From positions 1 through 64,000 of the IMG/VR virus record IMGVR_UViG_3300046467_002136: DNA of 64,000 nt, one strand, 5' to 3'. Position numbers and translations under genes: made by a program. Shown here piece after piece: positions 12,585-33,666 of the stretch (position 1 is the first letter of the stretch; each line of letters begins with the position of its first letter). This stretch comes from a virus. The notes beneath the pieces are model-generated. The model made no database searches and was not told the origin of the DNA. It saw only the letters and a program-made list of their open reading frames with translations.

Positions 12585-12588
12585 AGAC

Positions 12589-14227: not shown

Positions 14228-14230
14228 TGT

Positions 14231-14431: not shown

Positions 14432-14509
14432 ACCTAGACCTTACCACGAGCGTGTAACTTACTGGTATCATGGAAACGTTACCTAGGACGACTCCCTGTG
14501 AGGCTATAA

Positions 14510-14749: not shown

Positions 14750-14752
14750 ATC

Positions 14753-14962: not shown

Positions 14963-15153
14963 GTCTCCCTCCTCAAACAATTATTGAAACAGATGGGGTG
15001 GCCTATCACGACGAAGCTCCCGGTACCAGAGACGACGATATTCGTGTTTGGAATTCAGCAAAAGCCCGAATGGAATGGGTATCTGATGGTGGTACCACCT
15101 ATTGCCCGGGATTTCGTAGAGAAAGATACGGAACCACCGAAGAGGCGTCATGA
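14959..15153 (+). CDS. Small hypothetical protein
   Basis: ATGA overlaps on both sides; R.WNS...C..F...EE motif shared with 10116..10265. Confidence 0.65.
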   Translation: MSLPPQTIIETDGVAYHDEAPGTRDDDIRVWNSAKARMEWVSDGGTTYCPGFRRERYGTTEEAS

Positions 15154-15452
15154 GCGTTCGTAGCACTCCGGGGACACTTTATTCCAACGATGCGGAACTG
15201 TCGTTCGTAGAATCTGAGATTGCTCGGATTATGTACGCGGCTGGGCTCGATTGGGCTGACATCGATACGACAACCATTGATGACATCGTTGACAAGATCC
15301 GTGAGACTTTCACATACGGAACCGCCGTGGGTTCCGAAAGTGCAACGGTTTTAAACGCATCAGATGAGTGGCTTCTACTCCAACAAGAAGTGCTTATTAG
15401 CCCCCTGCGCCGTACTTGGCGTAGGCGTGCTCTCGCGACCGGGCGTGCGTAA
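15150..15452 (+). CDS. Small hypothetical protein
   Basis: Coupled to both neighbours; paralogue of 9844..10116. Confidence 0.7.
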   Translation: MSVRSTPGTLYSNDAELSFVESEIARIMYAAGLDWADIDTTTIDDIVDKIRETFTYGTAVGSESATVLNASDEWLLLQQEVLISPLRRTWRRRALATGRA

Positions 15453-16213: not shown

Positions 16214-16224
16214 ATAGAAACACA

Positions 16225-17256: not shown

Positions 17257-18112
17257 AATGGAACACTACGCCAACGGCATTTCGATACAACGGGCCGCTA
17301 TTAAAACTCCTACACATGTTGTAGAGCAGCTTCTGGATCTACGCGACCAACAACTTCACGACCAGTATGAATTTGATGGCGATATTGCGATACATAGAGA
17401 TAGTGGTATCCATTATCTTTTAGAGAAGGATATTCTCCAACAACCCGTTCGCGTTCACCCACACGGACACGATGGAATGGAAGCCGTCGATACACAGTTT
17501 TGGAAGGACTGTGATCGTCTCTGTTATGGCGCGGTGCTCGAATATATTAAGAAATATCCAACCATTATTGCTTCCCTGTGGTGGAGAAACCGTGGTCATG
17601 TTCTGATTTATGAACCCGGAGCTTTTTTGGGTTTACATCAAGACCAAGATGTTGGTTACACTTGGAGCAATCGCGATAATGTTGTTGGAAAATACGAAAT
17701 CTCAACTCGTAATACAATTAGCACTACCATGCATATCGTCGATTCCGACGGCGGTGAAATGCATTTCCCTTACGCCGACCTGACTGTTGAAGCGTGCGAA
17801 GGCGATATTCTGATCTTTCCTGCTAACTATGTAGCTGCTCATGAGGTCACCCCCATCAAAGAGGGTAGTAGGCGGATCTCTTATCTGGCTTGGTTCGGAC
17901 AGGGTTCGACTGAACCGCTAGTTCAACCAAATGGGCCACTAGATATCGTTGAGCCCGTAGGGGACAGGGTCGACCCGTTTATGTGGTGTCCAACCATCGC
18001 CGACGATTTCATTAATGCTTCGGGTTGGACCGACGATGAGATGAAGTTCAAATATCCTGCATGGCGCAGGGAATCTGTACCGAATTACCACATCAATAAA
18101 AAGGGCGAATGA
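17246..18112 (+). CDS. 2OG-Fe(II) oxygenase (WW subfamily)
   Basis: LWWRNRGH...LGLHQD...FPANYVAAHEV...RRISY; start moved to the first ATG. Confidence 0.85.
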   Translation: MMHEMEHYANGISIQRAAIKTPTHVVEQLLDLRDQQLHDQYEFDGDIAIHRDSGIHYLLEKDILQQPVRVHPHGHDGMEAVDTQFWKDCDRLCYGAVLEYIKKYPTIIASLWWRNRGHVLIYEPGAFLGLHQDQDVGYTWSNRDNVVGKYEISTRNTISTTMHIVDSDGGEMHFPYADLTVEACEGDILIFPANYVAAHEVTPIKEGSRRISYLAWFGQGSTEPLVQPNGPLDIVEPVGDRVDPFMWCPTIADDFINASGWTDDEMKFKYPAWRRESVPNYHINKKGE

Positions 18113-18889
18113 ATGTGGGCAGAGCATTTAGGTGGAGGAGTGGTCAAATTTCATGACTCCATCGAAATTGAAGATGGGGTTCTGAATACTCTTGAACAAA
18201 TGGCAGATCAAGCTCTGCTAGAAATGTATGATTTAGATCCTAAGGGTAGATTTGGGATCAATCAAAGTGGGCATGTTATCCCCGCAGATCAAATATCGAA
18301 AATGCCTATTCGCATCAACCAACCATTAGACCCAGATTTCTTTGGTCGTTGTGATGCGGCCATTTACGAAAACCTACTTACTTATTGCTCCCACTTTCCG
18401 GACGCTATGCCTTCATGTTGGTGGTCCGCAGGGGGACATGTCGCCGTCTATCGAAACGGTGGGTTACTAGGGCCACATAGTGACAACGATATTAATTATC
18501 ATTACGGAGACCACCCCAAAGACCAGACGGCCCTATTCAATGTTGTTTCATCCACTTTGGTATTGGGTGCAGGGTTTACCGGTGGAAATCTTAAATTCGA
18601 ATACTTGAATATTGAAACTAGGGTTGGCCCGGGTGATCATATTCTGTTTCCAGCGAACTACATGGCGACTCACTCCATCACAGAAATTCATGAAGGAACG
18701 CGATATAGCTATATTTCTACTTTCGGACAGGGAACATCAGCACCAGACCGGGGAATTGTTATTCAACCCAAGAGAGAGTCTGGAATGCAGGGCCGATCTT
18801 GGCTCCCAAGTTTAGAAAAAGACTTTATTGCAAAAGTGGGTCCTGATCATAAATTCGCACCTAGGCCACGAGATCACCAAAGAAAATGA
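18113..18889 (+). CDS. 2OG-Fe(II) oxygenase (WW subfamily)
   Basis: CWWSAGGH...LGPHSD...FPANYMATHSI...RYSY. Confidence 0.85.
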   Translation: MWAEHLGGGVVKFHDSIEIEDGVLNTLEQMADQALLEMYDLDPKGRFGINQSGHVIPADQISKMPIRINQPLDPDFFGRCDAAIYENLLTYCSHFPDAMPSCWWSAGGHVAVYRNGGLLGPHSDNDINYHYGDHPKDQTALFNVVSSTLVLGAGFTGGNLKFEYLNIETRVGPGDHILFPANYMATHSITEIHEGTRYSYISTFGQGTSAPDRGIVIQPKRESGMQGRSWLPSLEKDFIAKVGPDHKFAPRPRDHQRK

Positions 18890-19470
18890 ATGCAGTGTTA
18901 CCTTACGAAGAAATAATTACAATAGATAATTTTTTAAGTCGAGAACAATGCGACTGGTTTATTCGTTTATTTCACGCAGAAAATACTGACTTTGCTGAAC
19001 CTGGCGAACGATTTGGGTCGGAACTGTTATCACAACATCTCGAAATACTTCATCTCGATCAGATTTATTTCTATAAAGAAGTTAAATATATTGCTGCAGA
19101 ATGGGCTCGCTTAGTTCCGATCCCAAATGCTTTTCCTGATTACATGCAAGTAGTGAGAAGGGCACCGGGAGCCTCTCTCGGTTCTCATATCGATTTTGAA
19201 GACAGGGTTTATAGTTCAATAATTTATTTGAATGATGATTTTTCTGGTGGAGAAACAACAGTAGGTGACAGAACTATTAAACCTGAAATTGGGAAATGTA
19301 TCGGTTTTTATGGAAGTCATGTGCAACATGAGTTGCATGAAGTAAGAGATAACTCTAGATACATTCTTATTACATGGTTCAGAGATCTTGAGAATCTACC
19401 TTTAGAACGAAAAGAAATTGCCGCTCAGAGACAAAAAAATACAGAGTTGGCTAGTTCCTTGTTTAACTAA
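18886..19470 (+). CDS. 2OG-Fe(II) oxygenase, prolyl-4-hydroxylase-like
   Basis: IDNFLS..QC; HID...IIYLNDDFSGGET...QHE....RY...WF. Confidence 0.85.
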   Translation: MNAVLPYEEIITIDNFLSREQCDWFIRLFHAENTDFAEPGERFGSELLSQHLEILHLDQIYFYKEVKYIAAEWARLVPIPNAFPDYMQVVRRAPGASLGSHIDFEDRVYSSIIYLNDDFSGGETTVGDRTIKPEIGKCIGFYGSHVQHELHEVRDNSRYILITWFRDLENLPLERKEIAAQRQKNTELASSLFN

Positions 19471-20155
19471 AAGGATTGATGAGCTCAGAGAACCACTCTT
19501 GACCGGTTCCCTGTCCGCCCGGCGGAGTGCCTTGGCCAAAGAACTCTAAATAAGTGATTCTCTCGCCTGCCGTCACCGGGTTCACAGCGTGAGCCCCAAT
19601 AAAGTTGCAGGGGTACATCACAATTGTTCCCGTCTCAGGATTCATTGACGTATTTGATGTAGCAAATTCAAGTCCGCCGCCTTCTTCAGCTTTCTTAAGA
19701 ATCAAAGCAGCGGTAATTTCGTTGTAAATTGGAGCTTCGGTTGCGGGAGTTTGACCTGGGGTGTACTCGATTTCTCGATCTGAGTGACTTCCCATACCTT
19801 GTCCGTTCTCGTAACAGGCAACCTGCCCATCAACCCTCCACCAAATTGATCTCCACACGGAGGGGTGAATATGAACGTATTCGACCAGACACTCGTGCAC
19901 TATATTTCTTATCTCGTTGTAAAACGAGAGGTCTTCCCCGTCGGGAGTTAGGTTTAAAAAGCGGGTTGGGGATGACTTTATTTGCTCTGGGGTGAAGGTG
20001 TATCCACCTCTATTCACATAGTTGCCATCATCGTCGATTGTGTAATCGCTTGGCTCACATTCCCTGCGCAACGACATCCAATTATCTAAAACATCTGGAT
20101 CTACGTTAAAAACGTCCGGAAACTCGACAATTCCTCCATGGTGAACTACCTTCAT
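19463..20155 (-). CDS. 2OG-Fe(II) oxygenase (WW subfamily)
   Basis: IWWRVDGQ...MGSHSD...YPCNFIGAHAV...GERITY; ATG 20155 follows a GGAG RBS. Confidence 0.85.
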   Translation of the reverse strand: MKVVHHGGIVEFPDVFNVDPDVLDNWMSLRRECEPSDYTIDDDGNYVNRGGYTFTPEQIKSSPTRFLNLTPDGEDLSFYNEIRNIVHECLVEYVHIHPSVWRSIWWRVDGQVACYENGQGMGSHSDREIEYTPGQTPATEAPIYNEITAALILKKAEEGGGLEFATSNTSMNPETGTIVMYPCNFIGAHAVNPVTAGERITYLEFFGQGTPPGGQGTGQEWFSELINPFS

Positions 20156-20796
20156 ATTCTTTCTCCCCATCCTTCGGGCACATCGTTATTTTTAGCTGAC
20201 TCTTCTTTAAATTCTCTAGCTTGCACTCCCGGAGGTAAGACAATCGGGACAAGAGAACTTAGCGGGTCATTGAAGAATAGGTCCGATACGGATCGCGCAT
20301 CGTCTCCACTGAGCCACATGAAGCGTCTCAGATCACCCATCTCGTGTGACATGGGGTACCCATAGATACCGCACTCAACGTAGCTGTTGAGCAAGGTGGC
20401 GTTTTCTCGAAAGTCCTCCCAGTTGGTCGGGTGAACCCAATTGCAGTCAACATAAATACCTGAAAAGTCAGCTGCTATGGCAGCATCCATCGTTGGATAT
20501 GACTCGGCTCTGGGATAAATGCCTTCTTCTGTGACCATCGTTTGCTTTTCTTCATCCCACACGGCGCTTTCTCCGATGATGACACCACCAAACTGAGAGA
20601 CAGAAAACACAACATCTGCTTCTTCGAATACTCGATTTAGAGTTTCGACTTCTTTCGTTCCTACCAAACGAGCTCGTTCTTGGGTTAATTCGGAACGACT
20701 CTTTGTGGCTGACAACACGTTGTGACCGGCTCGAAGTAACGCATCAGCGATGGTGGCTCCCATTGCCCCTGTGTGGAGTATTCCTATTGTTGCCAT
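20152..20796 (-). CDS. NAD(P)-binding oxidoreductase, 6-phosphogluconate/3-hydroxyisobutyrate dehydrogenase-like N-terminal domain
   Basis: IGILHTGAMGATIA...GH.V; ADVVFS; YVDCN. Confidence 0.7.
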   Translation of the reverse strand: MATIGILHTGAMGATIADALLRAGHNVLSATKSRSELTQERARLVGTKEVETLNRVFEEADVVFSVSQFGGVIIGESAVWDEEKQTMVTEEGIYPRAESYPTMDAAIAADFSGIYVDCNWVHPTNWEDFRENATLLNSYVECGIYGYPMSHEMGDLRRFMWLSGDDARSVSDLFFNDPLSSLVPIVLPPGVQAREFKEESAKNNDVPEGWGERI

Positions 20797-21389
20797 AGGT
20801 CGTCACTCATCACGCCTTGGCGTGTTTCTCGTTGTATCGCCGTGCCTGTGGGCTCATAGGGGTAGAGGTTACCAGCTATAGAGACACGGTCTCTGTCAGG
20901 GAATTGTCTTGTTGTCATGTGTTGGTAATAGGCCCCAAAGATGACCAGTAGACCCGGACGAAGCGAGATGCTTTCAAGCTTTTCGAGACGATTGCAGTAC
21001 ATGATGTGAATCACCATGTCAGCATCGTCCTCCTCGCCCAAGGGGTAGTAGCAGAAGGAAAAGTGTTCTTCTGGATTCAACCAAGTATTCGACCAGTGGG
21101 AATGGGCCATGACGGACTGCCCGGGTCCTGTATACACACCCCAAATGGCGTCTATGTAATACGGTCGGCCTAACAACTCGCAGGCAGCACTTGTGATCTG
21201 CTGCCGCAAATCCATCGTGATGCTCCCAGTTGGTAAGTCGAAGTCCTTATGCGGCTCATGTTTTTCAACAACAAAATCATGAATAGCTTTAGCATTACGG
21301 CTGTCCAACTCACATGTCCAATAGCCAATATCAACAATTGAATGCCGTTGGGCATTTCGTATCGGCGAGGGTCGCTCTCTATCTTGCAT
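20784..21389 (-). CDS. Putative 2OG-Fe(II) oxygenase (HxH type)
   Basis: W......G.....HSH...SFCYYP...PG.L.IF.....H......RVSIAGN. Confidence 0.75.
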   Translation of the reverse strand: MQDRERPSPIRNAQRHSIVDIGYWTCELDSRNAKAIHDFVVEKHEPHKDFDLPTGSITMDLRQQITSAACELLGRPYYIDAIWGVYTGPGQSVMAHSHWSNTWLNPEEHFSFCYYPLGEEDDADMVIHIMYCNRLEKLESISLRPGLLVIFGAYYQHMTTRQFPDRDRVSIAGNLYPYEPTGTAIQRETRQGVMSDDLWQQ

Positions 21390-22197
21390 CGGGGAGTTTG
21401 TAACCTTCTGGCATATAGATATTTGTTGTTGTGTCTGCCATTTCCGGGTGTTCAAGTGGATCTATAACAGACTCGTTAAATTTGCCGTTTGGCGTTCCGT
21501 GACAGTACCACCCTACATGCGAATACCTTGACCCTCCGGAAACCTCAGAAACAGAATGCGCCGCCATGTAATTTGCAGGGAATAAAATAATGTCGCCCTT
21601 GCTTGGCTTGTATTCAATATCTAAGTATTCCCACGACACCAGTCCCCCCGTGAAATTGGTTCCGTCTAGCTCTGTTTCGGTCTCGACATGATCGTTGAGG
21701 AATGCCAATGTAGACACTACGGTGCGTGTGGCTATCTGATCTGAGGGGTGTGGCGAACCGTACTCATAGTCTGTGCTTTGGTCGGAATGTAGACCCAAGT
21801 AACAGGTTTCGGGATAGACCAGGATGTGTCCTTTAATTTTCCACCAGATGCAGTTGCCTGCCAGCGGGAATTTGTGGAGGTAGTACCACAGGCATAAGTC
21901 TCTAGCGTCTTCAAGAGCCGTCAAAGCTTCTTTGGCTTTTGGGTTCATGTCTCTGTGGACATAGGCGCAGTGCCTAGGCATGCTCCATACGGATGCCGAG
22001 GGGAAGAAATATCCGTTCCGGTTTATGTACCCATCTTCACCACTAATGGGGTCTTTGCCCGGTGTATACATGTCGGCAATTTCTTTTTCCGCCGACTCTT
22101 GAGAAAATTCTCGAATAAAGTCCCAGTCGAGCTCCACCGCGTTCCGATAGAGAATAACGCCACTACCGAGTTCTTCACCGTCCAAGTTCATGTTCAT
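21379..22197 (-). CDS. 2OG-Fe(II) oxygenase (WW subfamily)
   Basis: IWWKIKGH...LGLHSD...FPANYMAAHSV..V..G.RYS. Confidence 0.85.
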   Translation of the reverse strand: MNMNLDGEELGSGVILYRNAVELDWDFIREFSQESAEKEIADMYTPGKDPISGEDGYINRNGYFFPSASVWSMPRHCAYVHRDMNPKAKEALTALEDARDLCLWYYLHKFPLAGNCIWWKIKGHILVYPETCYLGLHSDQSTDYEYGSPHPSDQIATRTVVSTLAFLNDHVETETELDGTNFTGGLVSWEYLDIEYKPSKGDIILFPANYMAAHSVSEVSGGSRYSHVGWYCHGTPNGKFNESVIDPLEHPEMADTTTNIYMPEGYKLPDAR

Positions 22198-23935
22198 CCA
22201 TCTCTAACATGATGGTCAGAAAGTCTCGGATGTCCCCAACGATCTCTTTGCGTTCTTCGTTTGTTTTTAGATGATTGAAACATCCGAATACGGTATCGAC
22301 AGCAAATTGGACTAAAAAATCTTTAGGAGGTTGTCCTCCATTTTCTTCGAAGTGGCCCGTATACGAAATGAAGGGTAAATTCTCCCACCTGTATGGTCGT
22401 TCTTTATGGCTTGGGTAATGCATAAAGTCCGGATAGTGCCAAGCATGACCAGCGTGTCGGAGATCTCGACGAGCTTCAGTCATGGCGACGATTTGATTTA
22501 CGCAGTTGCTAAATAATGGATCGTCTACTGATTTGTATGCTCGGGAAATGTCTCCGTTTTTCGTAAACATAAAGATTTGACCCATTGGATCTACTCCGGG
22601 ATTCCAATATGGAGCATATTTAGAACAGAGAATATGGTTCTGGTCAAAAGGAATTTTCACAACATGAAAATCTGGGTATGGGAGCTGATCACACTCAGCC
22701 CAGTTAGATCCTTGAATTTGTTCCCATAAAGTTGTTATCTGATCTGGAATGTTCGAATATTCATCTTTAACAATAAAAAATATTGTTACGGAGTTGACTA
22801 AATGTTTGAATTCAGGAAGGGCGTAAATCCCTTTAGTGAGCACCAAGGGAATATGATCCGGATTCGCTACGGCGCTTGCCCAATCATCTTTTACGGGTCC
22901 GTCGTTTTCGCTACTGAACTTTTTACTAACTGTTAAGCGTTCATCTTTTGGTGGATTACCAACCTTTGGAGGAGGCTCAACTATCTCTGTGAACTTACTG
23001 GGGTCGTAATATGGTTTATCTATCCCCACTTCATAACGAGTAAAGACCCTTTCCTCAAATTGGAATTCAGGACTAAAGGCATGGATGAGGTTTCTGTTAT
23101 CCCAAATAAACAGATCTCCCACATCCCAAGACCATCTGAATCGAAGATCTTCACGTTGGAGCCCGTTCAGCATCCATGCTTTTATCTCTTCCCATGGTTC
23201 AGTTGTTCCACCCACGGGGTTGCACTCTGTTGGATTAAACCAAAACGAGGTTTTCCCAGTAGCGGGGTGGGTTCTCAAAGCTGGAAATGTTACTGATTTC
23301 CCATAATGAGGGGAAGTCAACTCGTGTTCTCCGTGGTTTGCTTCTGGATCAGCTCCCAACGAATGAACTACTTGAAGATCCTTCAAATACTCTCTCATAT
23401 GTTCAGGCATAATTTCATAGAGATATTCCAAACTGGCGACCAGCGTGTCGTCATTACCGACAGCCTCTGTTCGTACATCCATCCGCATACTCTGAAGAGC
23501 AGGTGGGGACTCATGAAAAGGATTATCTACATGCCAATTGCCCCTAATGAAAGCTTCGGAAGATTCGAAGTCATTCAATGGGTGTTGTTCTACCATCCAC
23601 GAATGATCAACATTTAGGATATTTCCTTGCGACGGTGGGTCGTCGTCATCTCCCCTGTAAACAGAATTAACTATTGCTATTTGCTCTTCAACCGTGGGAT
23701 GCAAATACTTAAAACCAATAGCTTGATGTTTGGTGAATAGGTCAGCATAAAAATCAGAGTCATCAAGTATCTCTTGGGGGGTCACCCCTTGGATTCTCAA
23801 ACCCAATCGACCGAGATGTAGTCCTGACGCCACTCCGGTACCACTTGGGGAATCATTCCCATCTCCCCGTTCACGCGGTTTGTCAGCTTCGGCCATCGTC
23901 GTATCGTACCGCTGACCTTCAGGCAGGTTCGACAT
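22175..23935 (-). CDS. TauD/TfdA-family dioxygenase with a long unknown C-terminal extension
   Basis: WHVD, DTLVAS, RTHPATGK, W..GDL.IWDNR..IH...R; start placed at MSNLP. Confidence 0.8.
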   Translation of the reverse strand: MSNLPEGQRYDTTMAEADKPRERGDGNDSPSGTGVASGLHLGRLGLRIQGVTPQEILDDSDFYADLFTKHQAIGFKYLHPTVEEQIAIVNSVYRGDDDDPPSQGNILNVDHSWMVEQHPLNDFESSEAFIRGNWHVDNPFHESPPALQSMRMDVRTEAVGNDDTLVASLEYLYEIMPEHMREYLKDLQVVHSLGADPEANHGEHELTSPHYGKSVTFPALRTHPATGKTSFWFNPTECNPVGGTTEPWEEIKAWMLNGLQREDLRFRWSWDVGDLFIWDNRNLIHAFSPEFQFEERVFTRYEVGIDKPYYDPSKFTEIVEPPPKVGNPPKDERLTVSKKFSSENDGPVKDDWASAVANPDHIPLVLTKGIYALPEFKHLVNSVTIFFIVKDEYSNIPDQITTLWEQIQGSNWAECDQLPYPDFHVVKIPFDQNHILCSKYAPYWNPGVDPMGQIFMFTKNGDISRAYKSVDDPLFSNCVNQIVAMTEARRDLRHAGHAWHYPDFMHYPSHKERPYRWENLPFISYTGHFEENGGQPPKDFLVQFAVDTVFGCFNHLKTNEERKEIVGDIRDFLTIMLEMDEHELGR

Positions 23936-24932
23936 CAGTTCTCGTTTCCCATGTTGATTCAACCGATTGGTCTGGGACATCGAGTACTTGATGTCCTTCA
24001 TACTTCGGGCCGATGCGATCATCGTGTTCATTCAAACCTGTACGCAAGCTACCCATCCATGTCCATGGATTGTCGAGCATGTTTTGGTCTTTGGCGGCTC
24101 CATACGCTATTCGTGAATCCAACTGTGCTTGGTCCTCCCAAGCGTTGCCAACATTAAACTGGACTTCAGATAGCGCATCATCCTTCACGAAGGTGAACCA
24201 CATGTAGGGCATCCCTTTAGGGAAGGTGATAATTGAATTTAGTTTGGTGACTTTCCAGTTCATCGCAAATGGATCTGGCCACCAGCCGGGGATCATGGCA
24301 GACAGCGGAACAACGCCATCCATAAAGAAGTTTGGTGGACCGGAAATGAAAGTGCTGTATCCCTCAGGAGGATTGAATATCCAATCCACGGCAATAGACA
24401 GAATGCCAACGATTGATGGCATAGCTAAATCCCGCTCATAGCCACTTTCTACAGGTTCTGGTTCCGGCATATCGGAGATCTCAGGTATCTCCGGATGCTG
24501 TAGTTCTGGCATTTCATATTCGGGATCAACCCAATCCTCTGGAGGCTGTCCAGCCCAACGACGAGGAGGGATCGGAGGAGGAACCTCCATCACAACCTCT
24601 ATCCATGAAAACGTTTCCTCATCCCAAGTATAAAAATTGCCGTCATCCGGATATGGGGGCATTACGGGCACGGCTGCGACTTCTGAAGGTTTTTGAGTTG
24701 CTACACACTGTCTCGTTAGTCCACTAAGTACCGTAGGGACACTTCTGTCGTCATACTGTATAAAAGACACCTCTTCAGGGAGAATCACTTCCCAACCAAG
24801 AGTGTTAGCAACCGTTAACGGCAAACACTTGTAAGCATGTTTTTTATAGCTCTCGTCCATCCAATCCCGCCGAGGACGTGATTGACGAATTTCGGGAGGC
24901 TGATGGTGTACGCGAGTAAGTCCTACCTCCAT
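23919..24932 (-). CDS. DUF6065-family protein with an internal Pro/acidic insertion
   Basis: RRDWMD...HAYKCLPL.VAN..GW; GPPN; PF.MNWK; F.KG.P. Confidence 0.7.
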   Translation of the reverse strand: MEVGLTRVHHQPPEIRQSRPRRDWMDESYKKHAYKCLPLTVANTLGWEVILPEEVSFIQYDDRSVPTVLSGLTRQCVATQKPSEVAAVPVMPPYPDDGNFYTWDEETFSWIEVVMEVPPPIPPRRWAGQPPEDWVDPEYEMPELQHPEIPEISDMPEPEPVESGYERDLAMPSIVGILSIAVDWIFNPPEGYSTFISGPPNFFMDGVVPLSAMIPGWWPDPFAMNWKVTKLNSIITFPKGMPYMWFTFVKDDALSEVQFNVGNAWEDQAQLDSRIAYGAAKDQNMLDNPWTWMGSLRTGLNEHDDRIGPKYEGHQVLDVPDQSVESTWETRTDVEPA

Positions 24933-25420
24933 GTCTCTCCCTTGAGCTTCTTGCCATCAATTTGCTTTAAATTGACAGTTCCAGAACCGAGGGCAACCAA
25001 CCGACCTTTGTTTTCGATACGGGTTGTAACAACGGCAGCACTCTTGCTCAGAGATTCAATCGTTGAATAGGCGTCACAGATACCACCCTCGACGCTCTTT
25101 AAGTAGTTGATACTGAGATTGGAGGTCGCTACCCAAGTACCGGCAGGAACAAAAGGATAAACAACTAATGGCATAGCCGTATCAACAAGAGAAGCCAAGC
25201 AGGCACCGTGTAGCTGTCCGGTAAACATCAAGTGCTGATCTTTGACGAGGAAAGCGCAATGGCACACGCCACGCACATCATCGATTTCTACAATCGCAAC
25301 TTCAAGCCAAGCAGCGACTCCAGCGGAGAACCCGTTTTCCCCAAACTTGGTTCCAACCATGTTTTCAATGAATTCGGGATGTTTAACTTCAAGCTGCAGA
25401 TGCTGACTCAATTTGCCCAC
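24923..25420 (-). CDS. PaaI-like hotdog-fold thioesterase
   Basis: G.LHGACLASLVDTA...T.NL.INYL...LVA.G.GT. Confidence 0.8.
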   Translation of the reverse strand: MGKLSQHLQLEVKHPEFIENMVGTKFGENGFSAGVAAWLEVAIVEIDDVRGVCHCAFLVKDQHLMFTGQLHGACLASLVDTAMPLVVYPFVPAGTWVATSNLSINYLKSVEGGICDAYSTIESLSKSAAVVTTRIENKGRLVALGSGTVNLKQIDGKKLKGETWR

Positions 25421-26105
25421 CTAAAGTATGTGCCGAATCTGACTCGCTTGAAAGATTAGTACCACGAGCCATTCCGGGCTGTTGGTGATTTCTATCGTTG
25501 TAGTCGTACATCGTGACTGCTGAGTACTTTAGCTTGTCTCCGATTATTGGTAACGACTTGTGAACGTAAGGGTAGTTGGACGGAAACACCATGAGGTCTC
25601 CCGCTTCAGGAGTGAACTTGATATCCATGTTGGGCAAGACCAGCTCTCCTCCCTCGTAACCGTCGTTTAGCCAACCAATCGTTGATGTCACAGCGCAGTA
25701 CGAGAAGCCGTGGTCGGGGTGCAGTTCAAAATGCTGACCTTCCGCATACTTCACAAAGTTTGTGGCTTCTTCAAACTCAAGATTGATGCCGTAATGCGGG
25801 CTGTAGTGGCTATGGACCGCCTGCCTCACAGGCTCGATATATTCTGTGTACACCGCACCCAAGTCTTCAAAACCGGGAGCTGTGACAGGCAGGGCCATTT
25901 CTGCCATTTTGAAGTCACTACAATCCCGGTAGTCAAGCATTTGATCCATGTCTCCGACAGTGGCTCCCTTCCATGAAAAGAACTCGTGTTCGCTGCCGTC
26001 TAAGGCCGCTTCGAGTCGTTCAATGAGGTTTGCCGGATCAGGCCAGACATTCTTGTATAAGATGATGGCCATAGCGGGATGGCCGCAGAAGCCTGCGATT
26101 TCCAT
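25389..26105 (-). CDS. 2OG-Fe(II) oxygenase, prolyl-4-hydroxylase-like
   Basis: KY..GQHF..HPD...LNDGYEGGEL...FPSNYPYVH...KYS. Confidence 0.85.
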   Translation of the reverse strand: MEIAGFCGHPAMAIILYKNVWPDPANLIERLEAALDGSEHEFFSWKGATVGDMDQMLDYRDCSDFKMAEMALPVTAPGFEDLGAVYTEYIEPVRQAVHSHYSPHYGINLEFEEATNFVKYAEGQHFELHPDHGFSYCAVTSTIGWLNDGYEGGELVLPNMDIKFTPEAGDLMVFPSNYPYVHKSLPIIGDKLKYSAVTMYDYNDRNHQQPGMARGTNLSSESDSAHTLGGQIESASAA

Positions 26106-26755
26106 TAATTCGCTCCTAAGTCTGTAATTGTAGTGAAAGCTGGACTAGTCCACCTTACCCCGGAAGTTATTTCTTTGACTCCGTGTAGATAGTGGATATC
26201 GCCCGGATGGGCAACTGCCATACCGGCTTCAATTTCTAAACAAATGTCGTGATCTTGGTAGTAGAACTGTCCACCCTCGAAATTGTCATTCCAGTAGATA
26301 ATTGAATTGATGTCATAACTAGGAAATGGATTAGGGGTTCCGTCGTTGAGTTGTTTATCCGAATGTGGGCTTTGAAGGTTGCCGGGCAGCCATCTAACAA
26401 TTACAGGTGGTCTCATGTAAACCTTGTAATTGAACTTTTTTTCGATGAGATACTTGAGTTTCATGTTGTATTTGTCAACAAGGTCATGCAATTCGAGGTA
26501 ATTGTCTCTAAGAATCCCGGTATTGCAGACCCGATCCCACCAATAAGAGGCGTCGTAAATGCAAGTGCCCTCATCGTTGAAGATATCCGGACTTGGATTA
26601 TGCCACTCGGTGATGTTCTCTACCAGAAATTGAACTCGTGTGAGGTCAGATGTCTCGACAAGGTCTTTCACGACGATAATGTGATCAGTAGAGTTACCGA
26701 AATGTCCGGGCTCTATCAGAGACGAGTCTAAATCAACGTCCTGATCCGGGTCCAT
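26105..26755 (-). CDS. 2OG-Fe(II) oxygenase, prolyl-hydroxylase-like
   Basis: VRW.PG..Q.PHSD...IYWNDNFEGG...PG...YLHGV.EITSGVRWT. Confidence 0.85.
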   Translation of the reverse strand: MDPDQDVDLDSSLIEPGHFGNSTDHIIVVKDLVETSDLTRVQFLVENITEWHNPSPDIFNDEGTCIYDASYWWDRVCNTGILRDNYLELHDLVDKYNMKLKYLIEKKFNYKVYMRPPVIVRWLPGNLQSPHSDKQLNDGTPNPFPSYDINSIIYWNDNFEGGQFYYQDHDICLEIEAGMAVAHPGDIHYLHGVKEITSGVRWTSPAFTTITDLGAN

Positions 26756-26785: not shown

Positions 26786-27772
26786 CTATACCCCTTTGCC
26801 AACCTGAAATTTGTCTCCGTACTCCAAATGGTCAGCTTGGACCGATTCAGTTGGTAGTGTCCACTGTTGTTCTGGAGAATCGCCATCTTCTGTGGGTTCT
26901 CCGAGCAAATCGTCGATATGAGCACAGAGGATTGCTAGAGATTCTGTAATACCTCGTCTTTGCAGGGCATTGGGGTACACGCTGTTCCCAAATCCATCTA
27001 GACCAAGGGCTTCACGGACCTCACGGCGTATTTGCCCATCTTCTTGCCAACTACCTGGGGGAACAACAACTTCTTCTGTGTGTCCTTCTATAAACCACGG
27101 AAATACTTCCCCTTTGGGATCTCGTTCCCCGAGTAGGAATCCGTTGGCATAGCGCGTGAAGCTCTGTCCGTCTCGACTAACGAGGAATTTCTCAAAATTC
27201 CCTTGCAGCCCGGAAAATCCCGGCTTGCTGTCATCCACTATTTGTGGAGGGTCTGCCCAAGGGCTTGCTTCTTTGTGGTGCGGTAAATTGTTTTCGTCTC
27301 GTTCCAAATGAGCGCAATCCACCATGTGTTGCCAAAATGGGTCCATTTCTTGCTGGTGTTGTGCTCCGGGTTGCCATTTGGGATCGTAAACGTGTTTGTC
27401 GAATCTCCCATTAGTTAGTTCGGAAAACTGGAAGTCAACTCCATAGTTGTTTTTAGCGTACTTCTCAGCTACTTGACTGGCATTCAGATCTTTGTATTCG
27501 CCAGTTTTTTCATTTTCAGCGAAGGCTTCTAAGCCGTCATTGAATTCACCGTAACCATGACAGGTGAAATCGTCTACGACGATAGCCCTGATCTGAAAGT
27601 CATCCTCGTCTTTATAGTGCTCATCTAATGCTTTGAGCGCGATCATCTGAGGGTAGTTGCCACAACCCGCAGCAATATTAAAAACAAGAGTGACTTTCCC
27701 TTTGCAGTCATCCAGAATGTCCGGATTTTCTCCATCTGCTGACGCAATTTTGAAGTCATATGCGCTACCCAT
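26786..27772 (-). CDS. Glutathione-peroxidase-like protein (Cys type)
   Basis: KGKVTLVFNIAAGCG..PQ...L..L...Y; NFEKFLVSRDG. Confidence 0.75.
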   Translation of the reverse strand: MGSAYDFKIASADGENPDILDDCKGKVTLVFNIAAGCGNYPQMIALKALDEHYKDEDDFQIRAIVVDDFTCHGYGEFNDGLEAFAENEKTGEYKDLNASQVAEKYAKNNYGVDFQFSELTNGRFDKHVYDPKWQPGAQHQQEMDPFWQHMVDCAHLERDENNLPHHKEASPWADPPQIVDDSKPGFSGLQGNFEKFLVSRDGQSFTRYANGFLLGERDPKGEVFPWFIEGHTEEVVVPPGSWQEDGQIRREVREALGLDGFGNSVYPNALQRRGITESLAILCAHIDDLLGEPTEDGDSPEQQWTLPTESVQADHLEYGDKFQVGKGV

Positions 27773-27774: not shown

Positions 27775-28335
27775 TTACCCCTTAAAGCCCGGCGGGAAAT
27801 GCGGCGGGAAATGCGGCGGGAAATGCGGGGGGAAGAATGGTGGGAAGAACGGCGGGAAGAACGGCGGGAAGAACGGCGGGAAGAAGGGCGGGAAGAATGG
27901 TGGGAAGAAGGGCGGGAAATGGGGTGGGAAGAACGGTGGGAAGAATGGTGGGAAGAATGGGGGGAAATGGGGTGGGAAGAACGGTGGGAAGAACGGTGGG
28001 AAGAATGGGGGAAAGAACGGGGGAAAGAACGGGGGAAAGAATGGGGGAAAGTGAGGTGGGAAAAACGGGGGAAAATACGGGGGGAAATGAGGGTTGTATT
28101 GGGTGTAGTCGATGTTTGTCGCGAGTATATAAACTTCTCCAGCCGTCTGTACCTGACTGGCGACTGTACCTACAACCCCCGGGTTGCCTGAGGGGGCGTC
28201 AGTATCGCTCATCGTTCCTATATCAAAATTAGCTGCAGTGATTTGAGAGTTGGCGTTAGCAACGGTTTCCCCAACAATGTTGGGGACTATGCCCTTTCTG
28301 GGCTGTTCTTGGCCCTGCCCGCCATGTGTCACCAT
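27775..28335 (-). CDS. PASTA-like domain fused to a (Pro-Pro-x-Phe)25 tail
   Basis: VPNIVGETVANANSQITAANF...GTVASQ..AG followed by 25 PPxF units; tightly packed between tail-fibre and GPx genes. Confidence 0.8.
   Translation of the reverse strand: MVTHGGQGQEQPRKGIVPNIVGETVANANSQITAANFDIGTMSDTDAPSGNPGVVGTVASQVQTAGEVYILATNIDYTQYNPHFPPYFPPFFPPHFPPFFPPFFPPFFPPFFPPFFPPFFPPHFPPFFPPFFPPFFPPHFPPFFPPFFPPFFPPFFPPFFPPFFPPFFPPHFPPHFPPHFPPGFKG
27784..28095 (-). repeat. 12-bp tandem coding repeat (PPFF/PPHF)
   Basis: Plus-strand units such as ggcgggaagaac, ggtgggaagaat and ggcgggaaatgc, with synonymous variation. Confidence 0.95.
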
Positions 28336-28338: not shown

Positions 28339-31300
28339 TTAATCGTCCAAGTCCCCGTGTACCAACCATTCGTCAGTTGTGTACTTGACAATAGTACAAG
28401 TACTGTATTGATCCCGAAGCTTTAAGCCTGGAGTGGATCGAAGTGTTACACCACTGCCAGCGGTCATGGTGGTTTGTCCAGCCCCATAATTGATGATAGT
28501 CATCATGGTGCCGTTATCGAATGCGACACTTGAATTCGGTGGGACAGTGAAAGTGTTAGCGCTAGCGACGTTCATCCAAATATAAGAAGATTCGTCTACT
28601 AGTGCTGCCGTGTAGGAAGCTGTTTTAGTAGTTCCTGTAGCGTGGGTAGTGAACCGACCATAGGTTTTGGAACCTGAATAGCCGAGCGTGCCACCGCCGT
28701 AATCGAAGTACGCAGTAAGATTGTTCGCATAGGTGTTAATACCGACAGCGCCACTATTGCCAGAACCAATATAGGTATAAGAGCCATTAGTCGTGGACTT
28801 AATCATGTACTCATTTACGGCGTCTTTATGGGACTTGTTTTTGATACCCGAATAGTCATACCACGACGAAGTAATATAGTAATAGGAGGTCGCGTCAGGC
28901 TGGGTTGTCCATGCGGCTACAGTCGCCACCCCGGTCGAGCCGACGTAGTCGGTGATGGTTCGCTCTTGACCGTCTCCGGTGCCATAGTAAATGGAGATCC
29001 TGTGACCGTTGTAATAGTCGTCCGCAGTCTCAAACCCAGCAGCAAGAGTCACTGTTGTGGAAGTTGCGGCTTGCGCTAGTCCGCTATCGCTGTTCGCGGC
29101 GGAGGTGGAGATAGTGCCTATCTCTAGACCACCGCCCGTCCAGTCAGCGTGGTCAGCCTTTGTCGTGGAAGTGATCCTCAAATTCTGGTTGAACTCCCAG
29201 AAATTCCATGTAGCGTCAAGTTCGTCGTTGTCGTTCCACTTAATCGTGTAATCGGCAGCACCCTTCACGGTGAAACCAGTTCCGGTAGCAGTAAGATCTG
29301 TCGGAGAAGCGACGTTGGCCAACGTGATGTTCGTGCCTGTCGTGGCGATTATGCCGGTAGCACCAATGGTCATCCGTTCTGTGCCAGCCGTATCGAAACG
29401 GATAATGTCCTCGTCGGCTGACTCTTCGACCTGAATCTTGGTATCCGCATCGGCGTCCGTGAGCGAATCGCTGCTTAAAGCGCCCAATCCCGTATCAACG
29501 TAGGCCGTAGTGGCAACCTTCGTGGAGTTGTTACTCTGGGCCTGCGTCGTTCCCGCAACACCATCAGCTAGAACAACAGTGGCCGCAAGAGCGTTCTTGG
29601 ACAACTGGAGAACACCATCGACGTAGACACTCTTGCCGGTAGCGAGAGCGATGTGTTCAGACGAGGTCCAAGCGTCAGTCGAGTTAACCCAGTTCCATGT
29701 CTTATCGGTAGCGCCCTTCAGAGTTAAACCACCGCCGTCAGCAGTGGTGTCGGTAGGTGTGGCGACTGAACCGATTTCGATATTCTTATCATCAACGGTG
29801 ATCGTTGTAGAACTAATCGTTGTTTCTGTTCCATTGACTGTCAGATCACCAGTGATTGTCACTGTGCCATCTGCGGCAATGGTCATTCTCTCCGTGCCAG
29901 CGGTATCGAAGCGAATGATGTCTTCGTCGGCTGATTCTTCAACCTGAATAAGAGTGTCACCGTCGGCGTCCGTGAGTGAATCGCTACTGAGGGCACCAAG
30001 ACCAGTGTCAACGTAAGCAGTAGTAGCAAGTTTCGTAGAGGCATCACTCTGTGATTGGGTTGTACCGGTAACACCATCTGCTAGAGCTTGAACACTTGCC
30101 GTCGTAAAGACGGTACCGGTTTCATCCAAGAAGGTGATTGTGCGATCCGCCGTGGGATCAGTAACCGTAAGCGTGGTCTCAAAGTCATCCGCCGTTGCGC
30201 CCTCCATAACAATGGACGCACCAGAAACATTGACCAAAGGAGTCGTCAGAGAAGTTGTGACAGTAACGGCAGCAGGCAAACCAATTGTTACTGCTGCAGT
30301 TTCTGAACCTGAGCCGCTTACATCTACCTCATTTGCGGTTCCTGCCACCGTAGCAACGTAATTGCCTGTCGAATCCGTGCCCAAGGCGACAGAATCGGCA
30401 GCAACCGTTGCGGTAAGGGTTGCATTAGCCAAATCAGTAATCGTGACGTTACCTGTGAGGTCACCGCCCAAGGTGATTGTGAAATCATCAACGTTGAGGT
30501 CGATGGCTCCATCACCAGCGTCATCGTAAGTTGCAGCGATACCAGTATGAGTACCGTTAGTGACTAACTGTCCTCCAACAATATCCTGAACGTTTTCAGT
30601 TATTAAGGCAAGGTCAACCGCCCCATCGCCAGCATCGTCATAAGTTGCGGTGATGCCCGTATGGGAACCGTTGGTAGCCAACTGGGCACCAGTGATGTCT
30701 TGAACATTCTCTGTAATCAGGGCTAGATCGACCGCACCGTCACCGGCATCGTCGTAGGTGGCAGTAATGCCGGTATGCGATCCATTGGTGGCCAATTGGG
30801 CACCGGATACATCCTGTGTTGCTTCAGTGAAGTCCGTGACCGCAGTCGAGGGAATAGCGATCGTCGTATTCGCTGCAGCGGTCAAACGTCCGTAGGCGTC
30901 AACCGTGTAGCCGGGAACTTGGGTGGCGCTGCCATAGGCCGCTGCGGTAACAGCCGTGACGTTTAGCGCAATGTCGATTGCGCCGTCGCCAGCATCGTCA
31001 TAGGCGGCGGTTAGATGAGTGTGCGAACCGTTGGTAACAAGTTGGGCACCGGATACGTCTTGTACTGCTTCTGTGAAATCAGTGACAGCCGTAGAGGGGA
31101 TTGCAATTGTCGTATTCGACGCTGCCGTCAATCGACCGTATGTATCGACCGTGTAGCCGGGCACCTGAGTCGCACTCCCGTAGGAAGCCGCAGAGGCGCC
31201 AGAAGCTGTAAGGGTCAGATCTATGGCTCCGTCACCAGCATCGTCGTAGGTGGCCGCTATGCCGGTGTGAGAGCCATTGGTGGCTACCTGAGCTCCAGCT

Positions 31301-33666
31301 ACGTCTTGAGTTGCCTCAGTGAAGTCGGTTACTGCGGTTGAGGGGATGGCAATCGTTGTATTTGCAGCAGCGGTTAAATGACCCTGTGTATCAACGGTGT
31401 ATCCGGGAACCTGAGTGGCACTTCCGTAAGCAGCTGCGGCAACCCCAGAGCTGTCATGGTCGATGGTGTTGCCGGTGATCGTCAGATATGTACCAGCACT
31501 GAACGCCTGGGTGCCAGTGAACTGGGTCCAGGTGATCGTGTCTGATCCGACAGTGTGCGGATCGCTTATGGATGTGACCACAAAACCCTGGCCGCTGTTA
31601 GTGGACCCGGCAAGAACGTAGATAGCTTCGCCCGCTTTGATCTCACCAGTGGGTGCGCCATCAAAGTCGGTGGCCCTCGTGAGCACCCATGCAGCAGAGC
31701 CTGACGCACCTTGAGCGGTTACGTCATAAATGCCGTTGTGGGCTCCGGTTGCCTGATCCTGAACAAGAACTCGATTTCCGGTAGTTGTGTTCGCACCATC
31801 GACGACGAGACGAATCTGGGAACCGGAGGTCAGGGTTGCCCCTACCCCGGAAGTCCCATTGTCGTAGGTCGGGGTGTTCGGCAATGCCGTAGCAGAGGCG
31901 AGGTTAACGGCCTCGTGCCAATCGAGACCCGCGATGGCGTTGTCGACATAAGCCTTGGTTGCAGCGTGTGTAGCGTTGGCAACGGAACTAGAGATTGTGA
32001 CCGACCCGAAAGTGGGAGTATCTGACGCGCCTACGGCTTGTCCAATGGCAACGGTCGGGGTTGCAGTTTCCCCGCTGTTGTTGGTGAGGGTGACACCCGT
32101 GCCAGCTACGAGGCTGGCGGTGTAGTCACCAGTTGTGTCTGTACCCAGGGCAACCGAGTTCGCTTGAATCGTTGCGGTAAGAGTTGCATCGGCGAGATCA
32201 GTAATGGTTGCACTACCACCGAGGTCCCCGGCGAGAGTGATCGTGAAGTCATCGACGTTAAGGTCAATTGCACCGTCGCCAGCGTCATCATAGGTAGCAG
32301 CGATTCCGGAATGGGAGCCGTTGGTAACCAACTGCCCTGCAACAATGTCCTGAACATTTTCGGTAATCAGGGCTAGATCGACAGCCCCATCGCCAGCATC
32401 ATCATAAGTGGCTGTGATACCAGTATGTGACCCGTTAGTGGCGATCTGTGCGCCCGTAATGTCTTGGACATTCTCTGTAACAAGAGCCAAGTCGATAGCG
32501 CCATCACCGGCATCATCGTAAGCAGCAGTGATGCCGGTGTGGGTGCCATTGGTAGCGAGTTGTGCGCCAGAGACATCCTGTGTCGCTTCAGTAAAATCTG
32601 TAACTGCGGTCGAAGGAATAGCGATTGTCGTGTTCGCCGCAGCAGTCAGACGCCCATAAGTGTCAACCGTGTAACCGGGAACCTGTGTGGCGCTCCCATA
32701 AGAAGCGGTAGAAACTCCAGATGCCGTAAGGGTCAGGTCGATAGCGCCATCGCCAGCGTCGTCGTAAGTGGCACCAATCCCGGTATGCGAACCGTTAGTG
32801 GCTACTTGAGCGCCAACGGTATCCTCAATGTGTTCCGTGGCAGCACTCAGGTTTCCAGTCGTAACTACGGTTCCATCAACATTCGGGAATGTGATGGTGC
32901 GGTCTGCTGTCGGATCTGTAACGGTCAGAGTGGTTTCAAAATCGTCAGCAGTGGCGCCTTCAAGGACGATGGATGCACCGGAGACATTGATCAGAGGAGT
33001 TGTAAGAGAGGTTGTGACAGTTACGTCGCTAGGCAATCCGACAGTTACGGCAGCCGTTTCTGAACCGGACCCGGAAACCTCAACCTCGTTGGCAGTCCCA
33101 GCGACTGTGGCAACGTAGTTGCCCGTGGTGTCGGTCCCCAACTCTGTCGCATCCGCAACGATGGTTGCAGTCAGCGTTACGTCGGCAAGGTTGGTAACGG
33201 TCGTGCTACCGCTCAGATCACCAGCCAAGGTGATCGAAAAATCATCAACATTTAGGTCAATAGCCCCATCACCAGCGTCGTCATAGGTGGCACTAATACC
33301 ACTGTGCGATCCGTTGGTAACGAACTGAGCGCCAACAACGTCTTCAACACTCTCAGTATTGGTTTCCCACGAAACGCCACCAGCGGCGGTGCTGTCAGCA
33401 ACGAGGTGCTGCCCATTGCTTCCTACGGCAAGTCGACCTGCCGTGTTGTCCGCTGTACCGACAAGAAGATCACCCTTGGCGTCGATCAGGTATTGAGGGA
33501 TGTCTCCCAAACCGCCGTAGCCAAGAGAAGTCCATGCAGTCGATCCGTCACCAATCTTGTAACGCTCGTTATCGGTTTCGTATCCGATTTCCCCGATGGC
33601 CAGCGTGGGGTTATTGGAAGTCCAGTTCGCTGCGGTGTCTCTACGGAATTGAATAATTGCGGCCAT
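28339..33666 (-). CDS. Large modular tail fibre protein
   Basis: Mtd/hyaluronidase-type N-terminus (IQFRRDTAANW..NP.L..GEIG.ETD); 10 YDDAGDGAxD repeats, 4 YGSATQVPGYTVD repeats, 2 DADxDTxIQVEESADEDIIRFDTAG repeats; C-terminal W...GDL domain. Confidence 0.85.
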   Translation of the reverse strand: MAAIIQFRRDTAANWTSNNPTLAIGEIGYETDNERYKIGDGSTAWTSLGYGGLGDIPQYLIDAKGDLLVGTADNTAGRLAVGSNGQHLVADSTAAGGVSWETNTESVEDVVGAQFVTNGSHSGISATYDDAGDGAIDLNVDDFSITLAGDLSGSTTVTNLADVTLTATIVADATELGTDTTGNYVATVAGTANEVEVSGSGSETAAVTVGLPSDVTVTTSLTTPLINVSGASIVLEGATADDFETTLTVTDPTADRTITFPNVDGTVVTTGNLSAATEHIEDTVGAQVATNGSHTGIGATYDDAGDGAIDLTLTASGVSTASYGSATQVPGYTVDTYGRLTAAANTTIAIPSTAVTDFTEATQDVSGAQLATNGTHTGITAAYDDAGDGAIDLALVTENVQDITGAQIATNGSHTGITATYDDAGDGAVDLALITENVQDIVAGQLVTNGSHSGIAATYDDAGDGAIDLNVDDFTITLAGDLGGSATITDLADATLTATIQANSVALGTDTTGDYTASLVAGTGVTLTNNSGETATPTVAIGQAVGASDTPTFGSVTISSSVANATHAATKAYVDNAIAGLDWHEAVNLASATALPNTPTYDNGTSGVGATLTSGSQIRLVVDGANTTTGNRVLVQDQATGAHNGIYDVTAQGASGSAAWVLTRATDFDGAPTGEIKAGEAIYVLAGSTNSGQGFVVTSISDPHTVGSDTITWTQFTGTQAFSAGTYLTITGNTIDHDSSGVAAAAYGSATQVPGYTVDTQGHLTAAANTTIAIPSTAVTDFTEATQDVAGAQVATNGSHTGIAATYDDAGDGAIDLTLTASGASAASYGSATQVPGYTVDTYGRLTAASNTTIAIPSTAVTDFTEAVQDVSGAQLVTNGSHTHLTAAYDDAGDGAIDIALNVTAVTAAAYGSATQVPGYTVDAYGRLTAAANTTIAIPSTAVTDFTEATQDVSGAQLATNGSHTGITATYDDAGDGAVDLALITENVQDITGAQLATNGSHTGITATYDDAGDGAVDLALITENVQDIVGGQLVTNGTHTGIAATYDDAGDGAIDLNVDDFTITLGGDLTGNVTITDLANATLTATVAADSVALGTDSTGNYVATVAGTANEVDVSGSGSETAAVTIGLPAAVTVTTSLTTPLVNVSGASIVMEGATADDFETTLTVTDPTADRTITFLDETGTVFTTASVQALADGVTGTTQSQSDASTKLATTAYVDTGLGALSSDSLTDADGDTLIQVEESADEDIIRFDTAGTERMTIAADGTVTITGDLTVNGTETTISSTTITVDDKNIEIGSVATPTDTTADGGGLTLKGATDKTWNWVNSTDAWTSSEHIALATGKSVYVDGVLQLSKNALAATVVLADGVAGTTQAQSNNSTKVATTAYVDTGLGALSSDSLTDADADTKIQVEESADEDIIRFDTAGTERMTIGATGIIATTGTNITLANVASPTDLTATGTGFTVKGAADYTIKWNDNDELDATWNFWEFNQNLRITSTTKADHADWTGGGLEIGTISTSAANSDSGLAQAATSTTVTLAAGFETADDYYNGHRISIYYGTGDGQERTITDYVGSTGVATVAAWTTQPDATSYYYITSSWYDYSGIKNKSHKDAVNEYMIKSTTNGSYTYIGSGNSGAVGINTYANNLTAYFDYGGGTLGYSGSKTYGRFTTHATGTTKTASYTAALVDESSYIWMNVASANTFTVPPNSSVAFDNGTMMTIINYGAGQTTMTAGSGVTLRSTPGLKLRDQYSTCTIVKYTTDEWLVHGDLDD

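Follow-up and report, generated by a model that had tools for sequence, protein, structure and literature searches.

Among the described systems closest to the locus analysed here are the prolyl 4-hydroxylases (P4Hs) of Paramecium bursaria chlorella virus 1 (PBCV-1) and Bacillus anthracis, and the extensins and other hydroxyproline-rich glycoproteins (HRGPs) of plants. The PBCV-1 P4H reportedly acts on virus-encoded proline-rich repeats, as described by Eriksson et al. in 1999. We analysed a viral gene for a protein of 186 amino acids (aa), hereafter the PPxF gene, which encodes a PASTA-like head followed by 25 tandem Pro-Pro-x-Phe (PPxF) units and lies in a stretch of 64,000 nt covering positions 1 to 64,000 of the IMG/VR virus record IMGVR_UViG_3300046467_002136 (hereafter the window). 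As in PBCV-1, a P4H-type oxygenase and a proline-rich repeat protein are both virus-encoded, and the enzyme family matches the P4H structures of PBCV-1 and B. anthracis. Unlike in PBCV-1, the virus is a phage, the unit is Pro-Pro-aromatic-Phe instead of PAPK or X-Pro-Gly, there are at least ten paralogous enzymes instead of one, and a tail-fibre gene is physically linked to them. Extensins are expected to form extended polyproline-II rods and depend on P4H, and the same is expected of the PPxF tract, which likewise consists of short tandem proline-rich units with Tyr or His. The tract differs from extensins in that it has no Ser-Pro4, is dominated by Phe, and comes with no secretion signal.

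The PPxF gene is real and under selection, and stalks of this type recur in hundreds of phage fragments, directly upstream of genes resembling collagen-type prolyl hydroxylases. The reading that we favour, with a probability of about 0.45, is that the protein acts as an adhesin that partners the fibre and is carried on an extended stalk of prolines and aromatic residues, which is possibly hydroxylated. Since PPxF genes recur upstream of P4H-like genes, the tract is a testable candidate substrate of these enzymes. Literature searches found no publication describing a PPxF tract, and nothing of relevance on prolyl hydroxylases or proline-rich tail-fibre proteins of phages.

The repeat tract and selection on it

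The gene and its parts are arranged as follows:
27775..28335, minus strand: PPxF gene, 186 aa, with PASTA head, (PPxF)25 stalk and KG (open reading frame (ORF) and translation)
28084..28335, minus strand: head, residues 1-84, with a disordered N-terminus (aa 1-10) and a predicted PASTA fold (aa ~11-80) (Pfam, profile, AlphaFold2 (AF2), Foldseek)
27784..28083, minus strand: tract, residues 85-184, 25 PPxF units in 300 nt with a 12-nt period (script, Tandem Repeats Finder)
27775..27783, minus strand: AAG GGG TAA, Lys-Gly-stop (read from the sequence)

A preliminary description of the gene, made from the letters of the DNA, had counted exactly 25 PPxF units followed by KG, and a script count over residues 85-184 agrees with it: 17 PPFF, 6 PPHF, 1 PPYF and 1 PPGF units follow one another uninterrupted and lead into KG and the stop codon. 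Just before the tract, NPHF represents one more, degenerate unit, the 26th. The tract was also detected by Tandem Repeats Finder, which gave a period of 12 nt with 21.8-24.8 copies and 82-83% matches. The tight packing noted in that description was also found, with 3 nt between the fibre stop and the PPxF start codon (28336-28338) and 2 nt between the PPxF stop and the start codon of a gene resembling glutathione peroxidase (GPx) (27773-27774). The AAGGGG of the last two codons forms a site resembling a ribosome-binding site 5-10 nt upstream of the GPx-like ATG, and the conserved KG ending may therefore partly reflect translational coupling.

The description had further proposed that selection acts on the protein, and the pattern of variation bears this out, since only synonymous positions vary and unit counts change in frame. 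Unit positions 1, 2, 4, 5, 10 and 11, i.e., the first two bases of the codons for the two prolines and the last phenylalanine, are identical in 25/25 units, while all three synonymous third positions vary among the units of the window gene. In the closest subfamily the tract has 4, 6, 10, 15, 22, 23 or 25 units, all in frame and all ending in FKG, and the number ranges from 4 to 38 across the family. Position x, evaluated in 2581 units of 189 proteins, holds mostly Phe (57%), followed by His (28%) and Tyr (12%), and F, H, Y or W together account for 97%. Phe, Tyr and His are joined by single-base steps (TTY, TAY, CAY), and the other one-step neighbours of Phe are almost absent at x, which argues that the aromatic character is selected. 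The last three units of the window tract are adjacent PPHF units, and adjacent His units occur in 35/189 proteins. The head is also constrained, with dN/dS of 0.18-0.24 against three relatives at 73-86% identity.

Alternatively, the tract could be a functionless microsatellite that is prone to slippage and that a small PASTA protein tolerates at its end. The wide variation in unit number would agree with this, as would the loss of the PPxF frame within the tract in P0013, P0015 and the L207 copy; these are all short or low-coverage assemblies, and the frame loss may be due to assembly errors. The window gene itself reads through without any frameshift. Slippage does not account for six invariant non-synonymous positions beside three variable synonymous ones, for 14 distinct DNA units that encode only 4 peptide units, for an FKG end kept from 4 to 25 units, for the near-uniform aromatic or His residue at x, or for the retention of the tract across different heads and phage lineages. 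We consider this explanation extremely improbable.

Proline-rich peptides of similar composition are known, e.g., Bac5 with its x-Pro-Pro-y tetrads and gamma-zein with (VHLPPP)n. The protein might thus be a host-directed effector, such as a membrane-active or ribosome-targeting proline-rich peptide, and not a part of the virion. What favours such an effector is this compositional resemblance together with the uniform hydrophobicity of the tract, but the tract has none of the cationic residues that such peptides need, there is no signal peptide and no release mechanism, and the gene is located in a late structural operon, which makes an effector very improbable. Two further candidates were rejected. 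The plus-strand ORFs at 27799..28191 and 27837..28232, which run across the tract, are artefacts that mirror the repeat, and a collagen-like triple helix does not fit a period of 4 residues with 1 Gly in 100 and no Gly periodicity.

The PASTA head and the relatives of the protein

The PASTA-like head foreseen in the preliminary description is upheld by a family profile, the AF2 model and Foldseek. A profile built from 50 family sequences matches the PASTA domains of Mycobacterium tuberculosis PknB with E 3.6e-8, and the relatives P0069 (26.4 bits) and P0009 (25.8 bits) exceed the Pfam cut-off for PASTA. With the family alignment, AF2 modelled the head at aa 11-80 with a predicted local confidence (pLDDT) of 93-98 and a beta-alpha-beta topology (E14-16, H25-34, E38-46, E57-61, E68-70, E74-81), i.e., about 65-70 residues with one helix on a three-stranded sheet and a short first strand, as in the PASTA fold. 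All 20 best Foldseek matches in the PDB were PASTA structures, led by 3ouv (target-normalised TM-score 0.85, root-mean-square deviation 1.8 A) and including 5nod, 5e12 and 7o4c, and structure matches in the ESM Atlas agree. On these models the head is a PASTA fold. The fold of about 70 residues is common to the PknB, PrkC and StkP kinases and the PBP2x-type penicillin-binding proteins (PBPs), and the phage studied here probably has a Gram-positive host, where PASTA domains occur. Unlike these proteins, the phage protein has a single PASTA domain fused to a PPxF stalk and no kinase, transpeptidase or membrane anchor, and its head, a putative binder of muropeptide, lipid II or beta-lactam, is 12-20% identical to known PASTA structures.

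A search of 5.8 billion proteins returned 202 homologues of the window protein, and a DNA pattern back-translated from PPFF-PPHF-PPFF matched at least 119 viral stretches. The tract occurs in several architectures, behind a PASTA domain, behind two fibronectin type III (FN3)-type domains, or behind an unclassified 85-aa head, and it also links FN3 domains in proteins of 800-1470 aa. The idea that these large PPxF proteins are fusions to a fibre of the window type was rejected, as blastp against the window fibre gave no similarity.

After the tract the proteins end in F-K(-G), in PPRFGFRY, in Cys-rich modules, or in a Hint-like domain. The last of these was found in P0042, P0048, P0053 and P0069 and in the fibre partners of L212, L219 and L275, with a Cys right after the tract and HN at the end; it aligns with PF14890 over nearly the full length (E 3.9e-6) at 20.8-27.2 bits against a cut-off of 35.8 bits. 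The resemblance to Hint/intein-like autoprocessing domains, which extends to many fibre partners, suggests self-cleavage that would free or activate the C-terminus of the tract. The window protein differs from these relatives in lacking a domain of this kind and in terminating with FKG.

Some proteins at loci with the same fibre C-terminal domain (L243, L256, L251, L241, L225 and L255) carry tracts other than PPxF after FN3 or PASTA heads. These are FG-like FGVFGFSPF, YYNPPV, NPGF and PPPPIIAVT repeats, or polyproline with Cys-rich ends, and many end in a Hint-like domain.

The preliminary description had also raised the idea of a multi-core precursor peptide, in which the head would be a leader and the PPxF units would be excised and tailored by the oxygenases and a halogenase. 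A short repeated unit beside tailoring-type enzymes would suit such a precursor, but the heads are folded domains of different families (PASTA, FN3 and others), the tract can be internal between FN3 domains of large proteins, no cleavage motifs separate the units, and a structural gene, that of the fibre, is its constant companion in the genome. Moreover, no protease, cyclase or recognition element was found among the Pfam-matched neighbours, many neighbours being without a Pfam match. The idea is thus disfavoured and in our view hardly credible.

Coupling to the tail fibre

The gene preceding the PPxF gene and its part of interest are:
28339..33666, minus strand: tail-fibre gene for 1775 aa, ending 3 nt before the PPxF gene and matching phrog_30390
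28342..28629, minus strand: fibre C-terminal beta-domain, residues ~1680-1775, a candidate docking site (aligned in upstream fibres; AF2)

The tie to the fibre gene that the preliminary description had seen in one genome holds across many loci. Across 81 loci, -31 to 33 nt separate the PPxF gene from the gene before it, which is a homologue of the window fibre in 62 cases. In 61 of these 62, only the last 75-110 aa are similar, with an end-to-end alignment. Fibres of ~590 to 2010 aa that precede PPxF genes differ widely yet have a C-terminal beta-domain of roughly 95 aa in common. Genomes with two such fibres have one PPxF gene behind each. As read from the sequence, the PPxF gene is translationally coupled to the tail-fibre gene.

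The fibre C-domain has no sequence match in Pfam or the PDB. AF2 predicts an all-beta fold with pLDDT >92, and Foldseek matched it to the Pa223 capsid spike (E 8e-8), a KP1 baseplate protein, the N-terminal domains of CBA120 TSP4, and T4 gp9/gp10. The modelled domain is thus similar to domains that serve as adaptors or branch points in phage baseplates and tailspikes, but the structural similarity to the CBA120 TSP4 and T4 gp9/gp10 adaptors is modest (TM 0.4-0.6), and docking on it is a conjecture. With the fibre C-domain and the tract conserved and the heads swapped, the tract or the C-terminus of the PPxF protein would lie next to the fibre and the head would face the host. The Hint domains behind the tract in relatives fit a need for a free or activated C-terminus.

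Like the Tfa and gp38 helpers, the PPxF gene sits directly behind a fibre gene, and the protein could accordingly be a non-structural assembly factor of the Tfa or gp38/gp57 kind, i.e., a folding helper absent from the virion, with the conserved fibre C-domain as its possible client. Besides the position, translational coupling would agree with this role. Unlike Tfa and gp38, the PPxF protein has no sequence relationship to any helper family, with no Pfam or PHROG match to known assembly-protein families; in addition, swapped heads of surface type (PASTA, FN3) suit contact with the host better, and neither a unit number that ranges from 4 to 38 nor a tract placed between FN3 domains in 800-1470-aa proteins is in keeping with a folding helper. 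We regard such a helper as improbable.

The fibre itself holds many repeats of roughly 45-100 aa with the motif TNGSHTGI.ATYDDAGDGA.DL, and in relatives conserved genes for 453 aa and 148 aa precede it.

Linkage of PPxF genes to oxygenases

Genes of the oxygenase family PF13640 above the Pfam cut-off are carried by 47/48 PPxF-bearing records. An oxygenase homologue lies within 7 genes downstream of 77/91 PPxF genes and within 3 genes downstream of 72/91, and none lies upstream; 95% of downstream genes are on the PPxF strand, and DUF6065 is found downstream of 65/91 PPxF genes. Where the record is at least 50 kb long, which applies to 14 records, a median of 1.1 kb separates the PPxF gene from the closest P4H-type gene. 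The PPxF module occurs in at least two terminase lineages with constant gene order and strand.

To remove ascertainment bias, loci were gathered by the fibre C-domain motif alone. Among 104 fibre-motif loci with at least 700 nt downstream, 62 then have an ORF with at least four PPxF units. Presence was contrasted in the 55 fibre-motif loci with at least 5 kb downstream, which form 37 clusters at 75% DNA identity, with these results:
Oxygenase present, by locus: PPxF-positive 35/35, PPxF-negative 8/20
DUF6065 present, by locus: PPxF-positive 33/35, PPxF-negative 2/20
Oxygenase present, by cluster: PPxF-positive 22/22, PPxF-negative 7/15 (p = 1.7e-4)

As to the findings that the preliminary description had named as fatal to its proposal, oxygenase linkage holds in many loci including this fibre-ascertained contrast and the repeats vary in whole units only, while a few homologues do lose the frame.

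The PPxF protein could also be a fibre-associated protein that is no oxygenase substrate, placed where the structural operon meets a variable accessory island, and the oxygenases of that island would then have their substrates among host proteins, small molecules or further proteins of the phage. Such a separation is suggested by the oxygenases in nearly half of the PPxF-negative clusters and by the presence of TauD, halogenase-like, thioesterase and reductase genes in the downstream enzyme bank, which are typical of small-molecule chemistry. It is also suggested by three cultured cyanomyoviruses, in whose genomes 7-11 PF13640 genes lie dispersed while (PPxF)3 is absent throughout; the enzyme family thus has other substrates and is not PPxF-specific. 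Two Gordonia phages have neither PF13640 nor PPxF. The excess of oxygenases in PPxF-positive clusters, the contrast for DUF6065 and the constancy of gene order and strand in two terminase lineages speak against an accidental boundary. So do other proline- or aromatic-rich tracts in the partner proteins of several PPxF-negative, oxygenase-positive loci, which include FGVFGFSPF-like, YYNPPV and polyproline tracts and widen the candidate substrate to aromatic low-complexity tails generally. An unmodified fibre-associated protein is possible in our judgement, but doubtful.

Enzyme genes downstream of the PPxF gene

The genes that follow the PPxF gene are:
26786..27772, minus strand: GPx-like gene, 328 aa (Pfam GSHPx, E 7.5e-7)
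26105..26755, minus strand: divergent P4H-type 2-oxoglutarate (2OG) oxygenase, 216 aa, HxD...H (no Pfam match; homologues cross-match the family of the 238-aa enzyme, oxy238, at about E 1e-7)
25389..26105, minus strand: collagen-type prolyl-hydroxylase-like oxygenase, 238 aa, PF13640 (Pfam E 2.3e-7)
24923..25420, minus strand: 4HBT thioesterase (Pfam)
23919..24932, minus strand: DUF6065 (Pfam)
22175..24031, minus strand: TauD-type dioxygenase, 618 aa (Pfam)
20152..20796: P5C-reductase-like NADP oxidoreductase (Pfam)
11049..12584: tryptophan-halogenase-like gene (E 6e-91)
10301..22197: further enzyme bank with eight PF13640 genes, the halogenase-like and P5C-reductase-like genes and a weak 2OG-FeII_Oxy_5 match (Pfam)

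The window thus encodes a proline-rich repeat together with a P4H-type 2OG oxygenase in which HxD...H...K is intact, since H129, D131, H182 and K193 are invariant in the family of the 238-aa enzyme. The profile of this family matches the B. anthracis P4H (3itq/5hv0, E 1e-5), LH3, and the PBCV-1 P4H (5c5t, 6e-3). The 216-aa oxygenase is conserved downstream of PPxF genes, and homologues of the GPx-like gene follow PASTA-type PPxF genes in many loci. A six-frame search found nine PF13640 matches in the window, eight of them 2-17 kb downstream of the PPxF gene, and Pfam on ORFs added one more at 18886..19470. The co-directional island at 10301-27772 holds ten PF13640 genes by Pfam, the divergent paralogue at 26105..26755 and the TauD gene. 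The chemistry of this island exceeds the needs of prolyl hydroxylation alone.

The GPx-like protein has a Cys at the position of the catalytic residue (AAGCG) and a C-terminal extension of roughly 200 aa that matches no family. The DUF6065 protein has an acidic, proline-rich insertion, and a search of it against the PDB gave no credible match. The TauD ORF overlaps the end of the DUF6065 gene by 113 nt (23919-24031), and the TauD start is therefore probably a later ATG. No glycosyltransferase was identified among the annotated neighbours in the window.

The phage and its host

The window encodes tail sheath and terminase genes, and the whole record of 114 kb is about 76% complete. Outside the window, the record carries two WhiB-family genes (G000:C1:96049-96258 and 113508-113696). 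WhiB genes are a hallmark of Actinomycetota phages, and they were also found in 5/5 other long PPxF records. The large terminase subunit (TerL) is closest to those of Gordonia phages, at 43% identity. From the two WhiB genes and this terminase, the host likely belongs to the Actinomycetota and the phage is likely an uncultured actinobacterial myovirus. An Actinomycetota host fits the PASTA head.

More than 595 IMG/VR contigs have a terminase at least 79% identical to that of the window phage, whose clade is thus abundant and uncultured. No cultured phage was matched among 50,697 phage records, either by megablast of 8 kb or by tblastn with the protein sequence. Scanning 185,579 species genomes with the PPxF pattern gave one matching contig, L207 (DUCD01000215.1), a 25-kb low-coverage contig in a Verrucomicrobiales metagenome-assembled genome with genes for a fibre, PPxF, a GPx-like protein, oxygenases, DUF6065 and TauD, and with the tract split by a frameshift. 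As it carries the same phage module, it is probably a mis-binned phage contig and uninformative on the host.

Discussion

If the PPxF protein is an adhesin as we favour, it would be made late, together with the fibre, and would dock on the conserved C-terminal beta-domain of the fibre through its conserved tract or its C-terminus. The exchangeable head, which is PASTA here and FN3 in other phages, would be borne on an extended proline-aromatic stalk. By textbook geometry, a rod of 100 residues entirely in polyproline-II conformation is ~31 nm long, and the stalk could thus span up to about 30 nm and extend as far as the peptidoglycan of a Gram-positive host. The likeliest substrate of the adjacent P4H-like enzymes would be this stalk, with its prolines and perhaps its aromatic residues hydroxylated. 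By analogy with extensins and the PBCV-1 system, hydroxylation may lend solubility and stiffness to so hydrophobic a tract.

Several observations weigh against such an adhesin or against its hydroxylation, beginning with the oxygenases of the 7/15 PPxF-negative clusters and the PPxF-free cyanomyoviruses with many enzymes of the same family. The loci compared are mutually related, and the counts overstate their independence; one PPxF fragment, 38% complete, is without PF13640, and the large FN3-type PPxF proteins sit away from the oxygenase bank. The sites on which collagen-type P4Hs are known to act are X-Pro-Gly or polyproline-like, and Pro-Pro between aromatic residues would be a putative site. 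The AF2 model gives the tract pLDDT of about 58-64 and no regular secondary structure. The match of the window protein itself to Pfam PASTA (PF03793, aa 16-67, E 3.1e-4) reaches 21.1 bits against a cut-off of 23.2 bits. This is the sole Pfam match, no PHROG was matched, and neither was any described family of the Tfa/gp38 type.

A broader proposal is that abundant aquatic actinophages tailor their own virions in an extensin-like manner, with at least ten P4H-type dioxygenases together with DUF6065, TauD and possibly the halogenase. These enzymes would hydroxylate the aromatic-proline stalk, which would hold its exchangeable head for host binding at the tip of the tail fibre, and in relatives the Hint domain would activate the C-terminus of the stalk for attachment. 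We put this forward tentatively and hold it to be rather unlikely.

Many genes for 2OG-Fe(II) oxygenases with unexplained substrates are found in phages, marine cyanophages among them. The locus described here pairs such oxygenases with one obvious candidate substrate of simple chemistry, with the gene order fixed, in very abundant uncultured phages. If hydroxylation of the stalk is true, it would make these the first bacteriophage particles with a modification of the hydroxyproline type and would give a function to the long-unexplained banks of 2OG oxygenases in phages. If the protein is an adhesin at the fibre tip, it would represent a new type of stalk, an aromatic polyproline tunable from 4 to 38 units with exchangeable PASTA or FN3 heads, and this would have implications for how phages recognise those Gram-positive freshwater hosts that still resist cultivation together with their phages.

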